A stretch of 64,000 nucleotides of DNA from Dictyostelium discoideum (GCA_000004695.1 CM000153.2:512001-576000); one strand, 5' to 3'; numbered from the stretch's first letter, positions 6,010 through 12,733 are shown. Notes: generated by a model from the sequence alone, not told the origin. Numbers and translations are program-made.

Positions 6010-9000
6010 TTAATTTAGTTTTAATTTATTATTATTATTATTAATATTAATATTATTATTATTATTATTATTATTATTATTATTATTATTATTATTATTA
6101 TTATTATTATTATTATTATTATTATTATTATTATTATTATTATTATTATTTTTTGATGAACAAGCTACATCATTGTTATTACTATTACCATCACTATTAT
6201 TAATTCTTTTATTATTATTATTATTTGATGAACAAGCTACATCATTGTTTTTATTATTACCATCATCACTATTATTATTGCTTTTATTATTATTATTTGA
6301 TGAACAAGCTACATCATCGTTATTATTATTATTTTTTGAATTAAGATTTTTTTTATTTCTATTCATAAGTTTCAATTGTTGGTCGGCCATTATATCATTT
6401 TTATTACCATTATTAACATTATTATTATTATTATTATTATTATTATTATTATTATTATTATTATTATTATTATTATTATTATTATTATTATTATTATTAT
6501 TATTTGATGAACAAGCTACATCATTGTTATTATTATTATTTTTTAATTCAAGATTTTTTTTATTTCTATTTATAAGTCTCAATTGTTGATCAGCCATTAT
6601 TTCATTGTCAAAAATATCCAAAAGAGATTTCCTATTATTCTCCAAAAAGTCTTTCCTTTCTAAATATTTGTCACCTTGGTCAGCATGTGCATTTGCATTT
6701 TCAAGTAAGGTTTCTCTTTTAATTTTCATAAAATAACGTTGTGGTACTTTAAAAAACCAAAGGACGAAACAAACAAAGCCTATAAAAAAAAGGAATCCTA
6801 GAACTGGGATAATAGTAGCCTTTTCAACTAATACAGCATTAATTTCTGATTTACCATTATCCATATTTTCATTTGTTGAAATATTTTCTAATATTAACTT
6901 AAACATAGAGCTATCAACTTTTTGATTAACTATGACTTTAATTTCAGATGTTGAGTTTATCCTTGGTAAAAAGAAACTTGATAAGGTATCATTATCGATC
7001 ATGCATGATATTTCTTTTTGAATCACCGATGATATTGTGCATCTTGTTTCATCATCAATTAAGAGTATTGTTTCGCTTGTGAAAAAATTGAAACCAAATA
7101 TTGAAACTGCCCAGTGGTCCCTTTGATAGTTATTGATTGCACTAATGTTGGTTATTGTTGGTCCAATGAATGTGATATTAAAAGGAATCGTTTGATTCAA
7201 TGATTTTGCTGTACATAGTTTATCATGAGGGCCTTTGAACCAATCACTGGTTTTGACATCACATGAAAAAGAGGAATAGTTTAAATATTTACAACCAAAA
7301 TTATGTCCATCACAATCAAGAGAAACATGGTGTTCAGAATGAAAATTTTCACCAGATATAAATGCTGTACCACCATCATGATTGAAAGGTGCAGATGTTG
7401 TATTCTTAATGGTAGGTTGAACGGTGAATGTAAATGGATCAGAAAAAATACCACAACAGCTAACCCTAATTGAAACACTAGTTAAAAATGGTTCCTTTTT
7501 AGTTGTTATTTCATTGGAGTTTATACTTATTGGAGTCATTATTTGATCTGAAATTGTTATAGTAGTTTTGTCATAAAAGCCTTGATTGTTAAATTCACCA
7601 GTACAAATAATTAATTCATTCAATACTGAGCATGATTTAATTATAGGTTCTTTATAATTATATGTTGACATGAGTGATTTACCACCATATTTAATCTTGT
7701 AATCTTTTGTGCCACAGCCCACACCAATATAAAATAAATAATCTAAATCATTTGAAAAATTTTGATTAATTTTTCCTATTGATTTAATTTCTTCATTTGA
7801 GTCTGAGTAAAATGATAACACTGGGTTTTCTAAATTATTTCCAGCACTTGTATTATATAATTTAACAATGCAATAAGATCCATTTACAAGTGGTTGAGTA
7901 ACAAACTTTGCCATGAATGATAATCCAATAAATATACTATTTGATTTGCTTTCGTATGATTTTATCGACAAATTAACATAATTCAATGTTTTTGGTATGG
8001 TGAATGACATGATTGTTTCTTGGTCATTAATTTTAACATTATTAAAATTAGAAGGAACTCCATCATTATAAATAGTAAAAGAGTCTTCTTTACCAAAACA
8101 AAGTCAAAAATTCATTAGAAATACTGTATGATGAAATGTATGGTCTGTCATAGTTGAAATATAGATTGTTAATGTTGGAGATACCATCAACATTCAATGT
8201 TACTAATGAGTTGCTTTCTAAATTAGCATTGTCAATTAAATTACAAGTTATTTTTTTTGGAGATAGAGTTAAAATTGAGCATTTGGATTTTCCTATTTTT
8301 ACCTCTGCCTTGACCTGAGATGAGTTTGAGGTTAATCTCTCTCCAATGATTGTAATTATAGCATTTTTATTTCTTGGAATACTATTTATATAGTTTAATA
8401 CTGGAGGATATATTAATTTCTTTTTGTTTGATGGTACTTTACACACTAATAATTGGATTTCAAAAGATGAACAATAAACATCTGAATAATAGTTGTAAAA
8501 TTCAATCAATTCATGATCATTTGAAATTATTAAACTGTTATTAATTGTTGTGTTCTCTACTAAAATTTCAATTGGAAATGGTTCAATACAGAAATTGGTT
8601 CCAATTAATACCACCTTTGTTCCTTGTATTTCAACTCTTTCGATATATGGATTCTGATAGGATGTATTGTAAGAAAATGAAAAAAAATTCATTTTAAAAT
8701 TGCCACACCCTACTGGGGTCATCATTGAAAAATCAGAACTATTTTTTGTTTTTTGAAATAGTTCTATTTCAATTTTACAATAATCCGATTTCACAAGTGG
8801 TGTGAGATTCAATAAAAATAAAAGATATGTGATATTTGTGTTGAATATACCACCTCTTGTAGATGGTTTTATATCTGGTTCAAAAATAGGTGGAAAACCT
8901 ATAGTATAAAATTGAGAAAAAGCTGAGCTCTCATTTAATCCAATATTTAAAGTTTCATATAAATTATATTTTAAATTGAAATCTGAGGCTAAGTTACAAA

Positions 9001-9263
9001 TTCTCTCATCACCATCCACATTACAATCAAAATTATACTCCTGAATAATTTTTTGATATTTAAAACTATATTTTGAAACGTATTCATCCTTTGAATCATA
9101 AAAAAAAGTAATATTATCCTTATTTATAATAACTTTATAAAATATTAGCAAAATTATCATTTTATTTTAAATATATGTAATTATTTCATTAATACATACA
9201 ACTAGTTTTTGAATAAACTATGGACACCAAATAAAATGTAATTAAAAAAACCAATCTTTTCAT
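6010..9263 (-). CDS. Tgr-family-like IPT/TIG-domain single-pass membrane protein (paralog of the + strand gene at 10108..12733). Signal peptide, multiple GG..I.I.G..F IPT-like repeats, a TM helix, and a ~240-aa N-rich cytoplasmic tail with tandem repeats. The reading frame is interrupted by an apparent +1 frameshift near 8093..8105, so this is a possible pseudogene or sequencing error.
   Basis: ORFs 8090..9160 and 6010..8010 are adjacent, overlap by 4 codons in different frames, and are colinear with the continuous + strand paralog (...YDRPYISSYSISNEFLTLF|GKEDSF... vs ...YDIPHIKTYSQVNNEIHIIGSCFG...). The probable true start is an upstream signal-peptide mini-exon 9263..9200 (MKRLVFLITFYLVSIVYSKTS), donor GTATGT, then a 67-nt intron to the AG at 9134/9133. 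The ATG at 9160 is probably intronic. IPT-like motifs include VVLIGTNF and AIITIIGERLTS. The TM helix is IIPVLGFLFFIGFVCFVLWFF. Confidence 0.55.
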
Positions 9264-10107: not shown

Positions 10108-12733
10108 ATGAAAATTATACTATTATTTGTTATTTTTTTTCTAATTTCCAAGATCTTCTCTCAAAATTTAGTCTATCCAATTGGTATGTTTTTATGTTTT
10201 TTATAATTTTTTTTTTTTTTTTTTTTTCCCAATCCTTATTCTTTTTTTATAATTAGGATATGAAACTCATATGGACTCCCTTGTAGTTAAATATAAAGGA
10301 TCTGATATCTATTATACAAATATTTCATTTATTTGGAATCATAAAAGTCGTTATGATATGAGTTTTAATTGTGTTTTAAATGATACAATTAGAATTTGTA
10401 CTTTACCAGTGAAAGAATCTGATCGAGAACAAATGTATTCAGAGGAATTACTTGCATGTACTGCAAGAAATGGTATATTTGTTATGTGTGGTTTTGATGT
10501 ACATTTAGGTTTTTTCCCAAGTCCATTATTAATTTCACCTTTTAAACCAAAGACTAGAGGTGGAAATACAACATTAAGTGGTTATTATTTAGAATTAAAA
10601 GAAAGAGTATTTGTTATATTTGAAAATAATTATGAACAAGATCAATATTATGGATCTAATAATTATTATAGAGTAGTGGGTTATTTTGAAACAAACACAC
10701 CTGATAGAATAAATTTGACATTGAGAGTCTATCCAGGTTGTGGAAATAGAACAATTATTTGGGAAAATGGTGAAACATATAATTTTACATATCAAGATCC
10801 AAATATTGAAAAAATTGATATTAACCAATCAATACTTAATATAACTGGTACAAATTTCTATAATCAATCAGTATTTGTTGCCGTTAAAATTGATAATAAT
10901 ATTATTGATCCAAATGATATTATTTCAGTTGATTTCGAAAATATTAAATTAAAATTTAATTATTCAGATCCATTCTCATCAAAATTAAATGTTCAAGTCG
11001 GTTGTTGTGATTATTGGTCAAATAAATTTCAAATTACATATCCACCAATTCCATCAAGTGTAAATAGTATTCCAAAATTAAAAGGTGGTTTATTAATAAT
11101 CAATGGTAATAGATTAACTTCATCACCATCTTCAAATAATAATAATATATCAGTTACAGTTGGTGATTCAATTTGTTCAATTTTTTCATCATCTTCAAAT
11201 GAAATAAAATGTAATTTACAACCATTATCAAACTCAACATTAAATAATTCATCACCAATCACTGTATCAATTAATGGTGTTGAAAATACAAATAAACTAT
11301 TACTATATTATGATATTCCACACATTAAAACATATTCTCAAGTCAATAATGAAATTCATATAATTGGTAGTTGTTTTGGTAATATTAATTCAACTCACAT
11401 TCAAATCAATGGTAAACAAGCTCAAAATCAAATAAAATCAATTAATAATGATGAAACAGTTTTAATATTAAAAGTACAAAATCAAATTTATAATTTTAAT
11501 ATTTCAATCGAATCAAATTCAATCAATGTAGATGTAAAATTATATGCAATAATTAATGAAATTCCATCGGTTGGTAATAAATTTATTAATTTTACATTAT
11601 TATATGTAAATTCAAGTAATATTAATTCAATAGCAACAATTAAAATATTAAATGAACAATTAAATCAAACAATCCAATCAACTTTAACAACTTTTATTGA
11701 AAGTGTTGTATTATGTTCATTTTTAATTGAAAATCTTTGTGGTATTGTTAATTATGAAATTGAAATTGGTCATCAAAGATTTCAATCATCATTTTCATAT
11801 GAATCACCATTGATTAATAAATGTAATTTAAATTCAAATGAAATTGTTACTTGTATTGGTAAAGGTTTTGTAAATAGTAATGAAACAATTATTATTATTT
11901 CAAATCAATCAATAACATTTAATAATGAAAGTAATAATAATAATGATAAATCAATATCATTTCAAATGAATGAAGAGTATATTCTTGGTGAATTGTATTT
12001 AGATGTATGTGGTTTATTATCAAATAAAGTAAAAATTGATACAATACCAATTTTTAAAAATGTATCGATTCCAAACTTATTCGATACCAATGGTGGAGAA
12101 ATCATTATTTTTGGTAAATATTTAAATAATAATACAAATATTACAATTGAATGTAATAATGAAGTAATAGAAAAAGAATGTAAATCATATAATAGTACAT
12201 CATTAGAATGCAACATTGAATTTAATGGTCCAAATGATAAAACTTGTAAATTATTATTTAATAATATTGATAATAATAATAATAATAATAATATAGTATC
12301 AACATTTAATATTATCTATAAATCACCATCAATTAATCAAACTAGTATAATTAATTTAAAACAAGGAGGTATTTTAACAATTATTGGTAATGATTTCTAT
12401 TATCCAATTGATAAAGTTACAATAATTGGTAATAATGGTAATTGTAGTGGTTGTGATATTTTAAATTGTAATGAAGCAAAGTATATTAATGATACAATGA
12501 TAACATGTTTTATTCAAGCAACGAATAATACATTTAGTAATATTAAAAATGGTGAAATGATATTTATCAATGTTACAACCAATGGTAAAAGTGGTATATC
12601 AAAAGTATTCAAATATTTAACTCAATCTGATGATTCTCATCAATACTCTGACGCAAGAAATATCTTTCAAAATCTATTATTATCAATTTTAATCATATTA
12701 ATCATTTCATTATTATTCATTTCAAATATTTAA
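10108..12733 (+). CDS. Tgr-family-like IPT/TIG-domain membrane glycoprotein, two exons approx. join(10108..10183, 10257..12733). Signal peptide, many N-glycosylation sequons, C-terminal hydrophobic anchor with essentially no cytoplasmic tail.
   Basis: Exon 1 encodes MKIILLFVIFFLISKIFSQNLVYPIG, then a GTATGT donor and a 73-nt intron ending ...aattag, joining in phase to ORF 10271..12733. IPT/TIG-like motifs include LNITGTNFYN, KGGLLIINGNRLTSS, GGILTIIGNDFYYP and NGGEIIIFGKYL. The conserved block FPSPLLISPFKPKTRGG matches FPPIFEPDIKPSTRGG of the divergent paralog. The C-terminus LLLSILIILIISLLFISNI is a TM or GPI-signal-like anchor. Confidence 0.65.

Follow-up and report, generated by a model that had tools for sequence, protein, structure and literature searches.

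The region analysed here is a 64-kb stretch of chromosome 4 of Dictyostelium discoideum AX4 (the window; all coordinates are window positions), in which two genes of the Tgr family, here called tgrH-type (minus strand, ATG at 9263) and tgrI-type (plus strand, ATG at 10108), diverge from each other on opposite strands. The window is extremely A+T-rich, with many coding runs of poly-Asn and poly-Gln, and no tgr sequence other than this pair was found within its 64 kb. The locus is very probably one copy of a duplicating tgrH/tgrI head-to-head module in a chromosome 4 cluster, with its H half broken. The pair comprises the following features.

6010..8100, minus strand: remainder of the tgrH-type gene after the lesion (+1 frame), comprising the C-terminal ectodomain half, the transmembrane segment, an Asn-rich tail and the stop codon (open frame; TIG at 26.2 bits)
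6244..6639, minus strand: 207-nt tandem duplication (1.9 copies) in the cytoplasmic tail (Tandem Repeats Finder; repeated unit IMADQQL...NRNKKNL...DVACSS)
6751..6813, minus strand: predicted transmembrane segment IIPVLGFLFFIGFVCFVLWFF (Kyte-Doolittle 19-mer maximum 2.68, residues 792-818)
8100..8101, minus strand: 11-bp deletion, with loss of approximately TATGGCCAATG, placed to within 1-2 nt (alignment to L002 and to the two copies in L004)
8101..9132, minus strand: tgrH-type exon 2 on the 5' side of the lesion, N-terminal half of the ectodomain in the original frame (open reading frame 8090..9160; TIG at 30.4 bits; collinear with XP_639150.1)
9133..9199, minus strand: tgrH-type intron 1, 67 nt, GTATGT...TTATAAAG (exon/intron structure matching the intact homolog in L004)
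9200..9263, minus strand: tgrH-type exon 1 with start codon and signal peptide MKRLVFLITFYLVSIVYSKTS, phase 1 (translation; GTATGT donor directly after)
9264..10107, no strand: 844-bp interval between the start codons, presumed bidirectional promoter (geometry)
10108..10183, plus strand: tgrI-type exon 1 with start codon and signal peptide MKIILLFVIFFLISKIFSQ..., phase 1 (translation; the spliced product is XP_639162.1/Q54R85)
10184..10256, plus strand: tgrI-type intron, 73 nt, GTATGT...TAATTAG (splice signals)
10257..12733, plus strand: tgrI-type exon 2 with stop codon, a chain of beta-sandwich domains followed by a C-terminal hydrophobic anchor (Pfam, AlphaFold2, PDB fold matches)
12674..12721, plus strand: hydrophobic segment LLLSILIILIISLLFI at the C-terminus, with only SNI left before the stop codon (Kyte-Doolittle)

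In both genes the first exon is short and encodes a hydrophobic signal peptide, and the intron after it, which reads GTATGT...AG, measures 67 nt in the minus-strand gene and 73 nt in the plus-strand gene. The two products are collinear paralogs that share 26% identity over 828 alignment columns (E=3e-56). An initial annotation of this DNA had proposed two paralogous Tgr-like genes with IPT/TIG repeats, diverging across ~0.85 kb and each encoding a signal peptide and a membrane anchor. All of this is supported by the 844-bp spacing, the paralogy of the products, TIG matches in Pfam above the cut-off in both genes together with Ig_TgrO1 in the plus-strand gene, best matches among Dictyostelium Tgr proteins, and hydrophobic first exons and anchors (Kyte-Doolittle maxima of 2.89 for the plus-strand and 2.68 for the minus-strand protein).

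The plus-strand gene is intact, and its 850-amino-acid (aa) product is 100% identical to the annotated AX4 protein XP_639162.1 (UniProt Q54R85). The closest named paralog is TgrI3 ('Tiger protein I3', Q54RE1), with 79% identity. Pfam assigns Ig_TgrO1 to this protein with 107.7 bits (cut-off 27.9) and TIG with 46.6 bits in three stretches (cut-off 20.9). The AlphaFold2 model, based on 16 family sequences, is modest (mean predicted local distance difference test score, pLDDT, 65; predicted template modelling score, pTM, 0.34) and predicts a signal helix at the N-terminus, a helix at the C-terminus (residues 822-847) and, between them, sandwich domains in an all-beta chain. The closest folds in the PDB are plexin-A ectodomains and other multi-Ig/IPT receptors (8-12% identity, low TM-scores), and these predicted similarities fit a rod of IPT/Ig-like domains and nothing more specific.

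At the C-terminus of the plus-strand protein, a hydrophobic stretch of 16-19 residues ends three residues before the end of the protein, and the sequence HQYSDARNIFQN that precedes it is, together with the tail, nearly invariant among 16 family members. The last part of the gene (window 12600-12733) encodes ...HQYSDARNIFQN followed by LLLSILIILIISLLFI and SNI, that is, the small residues S-D-A, a short spacer and a terminal hydrophobic tail. This putative signal looks more like a glycosylphosphatidylinositol (GPI) attachment signal than like a normal transmembrane anchor. Based on hydrophobicity, the anchor is predicted to be either a transmembrane anchor or a GPI-attachment signal.

The minus-strand gene shows the same organisation, and its first exon aligns with the signal peptides of the plus-strand paralog and of XP_639150.1. 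Analysed as a whole, including the poly-Asn tail, the conceptual protein matched no Pfam family because of that tail, and its two halves taken separately both exceed the TIG cut-off of 20.9 bits, scoring 30.4 and 26.2. The hydrophobic segment is followed by a low-complexity, Asn-rich tail of 246 residues, in agreement with the long cytoplasmic tail that had been proposed for this protein; the plus-strand protein, as also proposed, ends three residues after its hydrophobic stretch. Within the poly-Asn of the tail (6010-6750), the motif DVACSS occurs four times, and XP_639150.1 has DLACSS/DVAC at the same place. This motif may represent a conserved Cys-containing signalling or lipidation site.

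The initial annotation also described both ectodomains as rich in N-glycans. For the plus-strand ectodomain this is clearly the case, with 31 N-X-S/T sequons compared with 18.2 +/- 3.6 in composition-matched shuffles, while the enrichment in the minus-strand ectodomain is modest (21 compared with 14.5 +/- 3.3). The repeat motif GG..I.I.G..F mentioned there is present only loosely, a relaxed pattern giving four matches in the plus-strand protein and one in the minus-strand protein.

Where the initial annotation saw in the minus-strand gene a receptor-like gene, the sequence contains a frameshift caused by the 11-bp deletion, both in AX4 and in AX2. The gene is not a single open reading frame: the frame shifts at ~8100/8101, after ~365 codons, and the original frame meets a stop codon at 8090-8092. 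The 11 bases are retained in three homologous copies from two other genomes, namely two copies in the D. discoideum isolate GCA_054859385.1 (L004) and one in D. cf. discoideum (L002). At the site of the lesion, the intact homolog reads ...GACTT[TATATGGCCAA]TGTTTTGG..., encoding NEVLTLYGQCFGKE. The identical lesion is present in the AX2-214 assembly GCA_054883475.1 (L009), which matches window 5878-18000 with 99.909% identity over 12,126 nt, with no mismatches and two gaps. A short intron at ~8010-8090 was considered as an alternative to a lesion and rejected, as both the paralog alignment and the homologous DNA run through the site; since the paralog alignment passes straight through the frame-shift point, this is not an intron. 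The deletion shifts the frame, and therefore intact H and I proteins cannot both come from this locus in AX4/AX2.

If the frameshift were a sequencing artefact, or were bypassed, both genes would be functional and could form a working H/I ligand-receptor pair. In line with this, there is a single lesion, the flanking frames are otherwise open over ~1,060 codons, and the AX2-214 annotation calls a product of 1028 aa across the lesion (L009 18578-21731, corresponding to window ~6010-9160), which starts at an internal ATG and does not include the signal-peptide exon. However, an 11-bp gap is unlike a homopolymer-type sequencing error, and the deletion is found in the second assembly (AX2) as well. 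The gene called in AX2-214 spans two frames, of 356 and 698 codons, so that the 1028-aa model can only bridge the lesion by means of an artificial intron; it is likely a mis-annotated pseudogene. Besides, no deposited AX4 protein matching the minus-strand gene was found in a homolog search that returned five matches and that also missed the existing L004 product, the AX2 1028-aa model and XP_639150.1; this result fits a pseudogene annotation. Considering this evidence, we regard a functional minus-strand gene in this lineage as very improbable. The minus-strand gene is a young pseudogene in the AX4/AX2 lineage, which could yield no more than a secreted, truncated fragment of 368 aa.

Both genes share the features of the Tgr family, i.e., IPT/TIG repeats, a hydrophobic N-terminal exon, a hydrophobic anchor and homology to named Tgr proteins. 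All named matches in both protein searches are from Dictyostelium species, and for neither gene does the best match lie outside the Tgr family. Over 913 aa, the minus-strand conceptual protein shares 52% identity with XP_639150.1/Q54R97 (1122 aa), and this match spans the signal peptide, the ectodomain, the transmembrane segment and the juxtamembrane tail. Both proteins have in common the tail motifs FFK(I/V)P(E/Q)R(F/Y)FM.IKRE, D.(Y/F)DN.IMA and NNNND(L/V)ACSS. When the C-terminal half of the minus-strand protein was searched exhaustively with phmmer, no more than 18 proteins were recovered at E<=1e-3, with the H-type ones on top.

The assignment to subfamilies makes use of reported gene lengths, i.e., 3366 nt for tgrH1 (DDB_G0283323) and 2568 nt for each of tgrI1 and tgrI2 (DDB_G0283335 and DDB_G0283317) (Table S3, bioRxiv 10.1101/2025.10.22.684067). 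The length of tgrI1/I2 matches XP_639151.1 (855 aa) exactly, and that of tgrH1 is one codon short of XP_639150.1. Based on gene length and neighbourhood, XP_639150.1 is probably TgrH1. We infer that the pair in the window consists of a tgrH-type pseudogene and a tgrI-type gene. The H and I genes belong to a fast-duplicating 'AHIO' set, apart from the BEJ and CDK clades of tgrB and tgrC, and the function of the TgrH and TgrI proteins is stated as unknown; AX4 has 38 tgr genes and 26 tgr pseudogenes (PMC12745789).

The initial annotation likened the pair to the tgrB1/tgrC1 locus. The head-to-head layout is as reported for that locus, but the pair itself is of the H and I types and has other flanks. 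The genes next to the pair are as follows.

1450-2991, minus strand: Mago-binding protein gene (flank, housekeeping)
3744-5800, plus strand: Dcp2/NUDIX decapping enzyme gene (flank, multi-exon, housekeeping)
13048-15810, plus strand: beta-adaptin gene with B2 appendage domain (flank, multi-exon, housekeeping)

The tgrB1/tgrC1 locus lies on AX4 chromosome 3, between wacA, chdB and DDB_G0280717 (PMC12745789). That the locus is tgrB1/tgrC1 itself, or a duplicate of the tgrB/tgrC clades, would agree with the head-to-head geometry and with the asymmetry between a long-tailed and a tail-less partner. This possibility is negligible, as the plus-strand protein is Q54R85 (850 aa), compared with exon lengths of 2670 nt for tgrC1 and 2703 nt for tgrB1 (bioRxiv 10.1101/2025.10.22.684067), the nearest relatives are TgrI3 and XP_639150.1, the putative TgrH1, the phmmer search is led by H-type proteins, and the flanks are the Mago-binding, Dcp2/NUDIX and beta-adaptin genes rather than wacA, chdB and DDB_G0280717. 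Judged by identity and synteny, which rule it out, the pair in the window is not the tgrB1/tgrC1 locus.

Pairs of H-type and I-type genes recur in other loci and species, as listed below.

Window, AX4: H full length with one frameshift; I intact
L005, AX2 record, chromosome 4: H intact (probably TgrH1); I intact
L003, AX2 record, chromosome 4: H truncated remnant; I intact (TgrI3)
L004, D. discoideum isolate GCA_054859385.1: H intact, 81% identity; I intact, 87% identity
L007, D. citrinum: H of 939 aa; I of 859 aa, with two more tandem I copies
L006, D. firmibasis: H partial, 549 aa; I of 953 aa
L001 and L002, D. cf. discoideum: H truncated / separated by ~6 kb; I truncated / runs off the locus end
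L008, D. discoideum isolate GCA_054859355.1: H tail fragment only; divergent I-I pair

The window matches the AX2 record CM142510.1 at ~5.01-5.03 Mb, and the three chromosome 4 pairs in this record are located at ~5.02, 5.06 and 5.18 Mb. The gene for XP_639150.1 and an I-type gene diverge head-to-head from ATGs that are 722 bp apart. The I-type partner is the AX2 annotation P0018 (837 aa), and the 90% cluster of this protein also holds the AX4 protein XP_639151.1 (855 aa), which is encoded on a contig of 5,450,249 bp that we take to be chromosome 4. The pair of the wild isolate L004 is found at the same position as the pair in the window, with a collinear left flank and an interval of 715 bp. 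Overall, intact pairs show an ATG-to-ATG spacing of 715-844 bp. Among the few loci compared here, decay is frequent in the H partner, and the I partner has usually stayed intact. In the literature, tgr genes are described as head-to-head pairs whose members show low similarity; the pairs are duplicated in clusters that also hold intervening genes, and pseudogenes are numerous (bioRxiv 10.1101/2025.10.22.684067).

Two of these loci show further arrangements. In L004, the pair is followed (13300-22100) by a 5' fragment of dcp2, an H fragment and two more I-type genes, an array that amounts to tandem partial duplications of a dcp2-H-I unit, including part of the housekeeping neighbour. In L008 (6762-12661), two I-type genes diverge from each other with only an H-tail fragment nearby, which differs from the H/I pairing.

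The head-to-head order could be a mere relic of duplication, in which H and I do not interact and I is either a lone general adhesion molecule or has no role. Consistent with this, I-type genes exist without an intact H, as tandem copies in L004 and L007 and as an I-I pair in L008, H is often decayed while I is still intact, and a very low expression of tgrH1, at 6 counts per million (CPM) compared with 44-57 CPM for tgrI1/I2, has been reported in QS33 at 9 h (bioRxiv 10.1101/2025.10.22.684067). On the other hand, the H/I pairing persists across D. discoideum, D. citrinum and D. firmibasis, the intact pairs have a similar spacing (715-844 bp), and the functional tgrB/tgrC pair shows the same asymmetric decay, with tgrB shortened in 13 of 25 loci and tgrC full length in 24 of 25 (PMC12745789). 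We consider a relic of this kind somewhat unlikely.

The broken H copy might also have been kept for some use, either as a gene-conversion reservoir for the nearby intact tgrH1/tgrI genes or as the source of a useful secreted fragment of 368 aa. The lesion is single and recent in a gene that is otherwise open, a truncated product would keep the signal peptide and the first Ig-like and TIG domains, and a reservoir role has been proposed for partial tgr duplicates at the tgrBC locus (PMC12745789). Nevertheless, there is no evidence of conversion tracts, and the minus-strand copy is only 52% identical to XP_639150.1, so that frequent gene conversion is unlikely. We consider such a use of the broken copy decidedly improbable.

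The 844-bp interval between the two start codons consists of 86% A+T and holds no other credible open reading frame. It contains an internal duplication of ~250 bp (window 9560-10010) and the repeated non-AT motifs AAAAAAGG..ATTTT, CACCACA, AAACCC and AATCxAAAAATAAATTATTA, and non-AT blocks are conserved between this interval and the interval at the same position in L004. The intervals of the tgrH1 (L005) and TgrI3 (L003) loci resemble each other, not that of the window, and have a CA-rich CCCCAYCCCACACAC block in common. In post-aggregative Dictyostelium promoters, GBF binds elements rich in CA/GT, which offers a lead for this block. The gene in the window is absent from the list of tgr-named genes with a CPM above 0 in QS33 at 9 h that is given in the preprint reporting the values for tgrH1 and tgrI1/I2.

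Based on these observations, we propose a theoretical scheme for the H/I module. The plus-strand gene is predicted to encode a secreted, N-glycosylated stalk of tandem Ig-like/IPT domains, held at the cell surface by its C-terminal hydrophobic segment. The minus-strand gene, if intact, would encode a ~1,060-aa type I membrane protein whose cytoplasmic tail of 246 residues is of low complexity. By analogy with TgrB1/TgrC1, the 844-bp interval would drive both genes, and intact H and I proteins would form a heterophilic surface pair, in which H signals via its tail and I is ligand-like. In AX4/AX2 only the I half could work, if at all, perhaps together with TgrH1 from ~40 kb away. The module would be subject to birth and death, the unit duplicating and then decaying, mostly in its H partner.

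Several points weigh against the interpretation of the locus as a tgrH/tgrI module with a broken H half. The gene names are deduced, and the assignment of tgrH1 to XP_639150.1 is off by one codon. The shared promoter is suggested only by the geometry and by a few blocks conserved with one other genome. Polishing against AX4 is conceivable for the AX2 assembly and would make it a weaker independent confirmation of the deletion. Finally, most tgr genes except tgrB1, tgrC1 and tgrM1 are weakly expressed during AX4 development (bioRxiv 10.1101/2025.10.22.684067).

A more far-reaching hypothesis is that TgrH and TgrI constitute a second, independent heterophilic recognition system that follows the same rules as TgrB/TgrC, in which head-to-head modules duplicate and preferentially lose the receptor-like partner to decay, with TgrH as a long-tailed signalling receptor and TgrI, without a cytoplasmic domain and possibly GPI-anchored, as its counterpart, so that the locus would be a recently inactivated module of which an intact allele segregates in wild isolates. 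This hypothesis is speculative, and we consider it unlikely.

The paired, clustered and pseudogene-rich organisation of tgr genes has already been described, and the genes belong to the annotated reference genome of a model organism, so that the locus, real but ordinary, has little discovery value. For the evolution of tgr genes, three small points may be of interest: a wild isolate carries an intact H gene at the position where the laboratory lineage has the broken copy, the H/I pairing is conserved as far as D. firmibasis, and decay strikes the receptor-like partner more often than the other, in line with what has been reported for tgrB and tgrC.

Among known systems, the closest is the tgrH1/tgrI pair (XP_639150.1 and XP_639151.1), ~40 kb away in the AX2 record, which resembles the pair in the window in its subfamilies, divergent orientation, exon structure and spacing (722 versus 844 bp). 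It differs in that both of its genes are intact, and in that the H and I proteins of the window are 52% and about 79% identical to its own, with different promoter blocks. The TgrI3 locus (Q54RE1), ~150 kb away in the AX2 record, likewise has an I-type gene, 79% identical, with a divergent H remnant upstream, but its H is a truncated and fragmented remnant of 449 aa and not a full-length gene with a single lesion. Outside the Tgr family, the predicted plus-strand model resembles the ectodomains of plexins A4, A1 and A2 (E=7e-13 to 1e-10), with a chain of IPT/Ig-like beta-sandwich domains and a single membrane anchor. The identity is 10-12% and the TM-scores of the modest model are 0.1-0.2, and the plus-strand protein has no sema, PSI or cytoplasmic GTPase-activating protein (GAP) domain. 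The resemblance is one of fold class only.

The comparison with tgrB1/tgrC1 combines differences in detail with likeness in design. Through their nearest relatives, the genes in the window fall in the AHIO set and not in the BEJ/CDK clades, and they lie on another chromosome with other flanks; one member is a pseudogene, so the two partners are not both intact; with 246 aa, the Asn-rich tail of H is much longer, and the I partner has almost no cytoplasmic residues. The tgrB1/tgrC1 locus is marked by extreme polymorphism between natural isolates, and its two genes are jointly expressed during development, with a peak at ~9 h. Among discoideum-clade genomes, amino-acid identities of 80-90% have been reported for slow tgr families and tgrB1, and of 65-70% for tgrC1 (PMC12745789). 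The plus-strand protein is 86.7% identical to its positional counterpart in L004 and the minus-strand ectodomain 81.9% (one genome, with orthology blurred by duplications); for the neighbours, amino-acid identity to L004 is 94-99% for Dcp2 and 77% for the Mago-binding protein, and the DNA of the flanks shows 88-90% identity. This single, weak comparison with one diverged isolate gave no sign of a hypervariability like that of tgrC1. TgrC1 has been described as the ligand and TgrB1 as the receptor (PMC12142906, citing Hirose 2017 for the receptor-ligand pair), while the introduction of bioRxiv 10.1101/2025.10.22.684067 gives the opposite roles, with TgrB1 as ligand and TgrC1 as receptor. As in the tgrB1/tgrC1 system, the locus in the window combines Tgr paralogs of low similarity placed head-to-head across one short interval, an asymmetry between one partner with a putative signalling cytoplasmic domain (the receptor TgrB1 in that system) and a ligand-like one (TgrC1), and a receptor-like partner that decays more often than the other.

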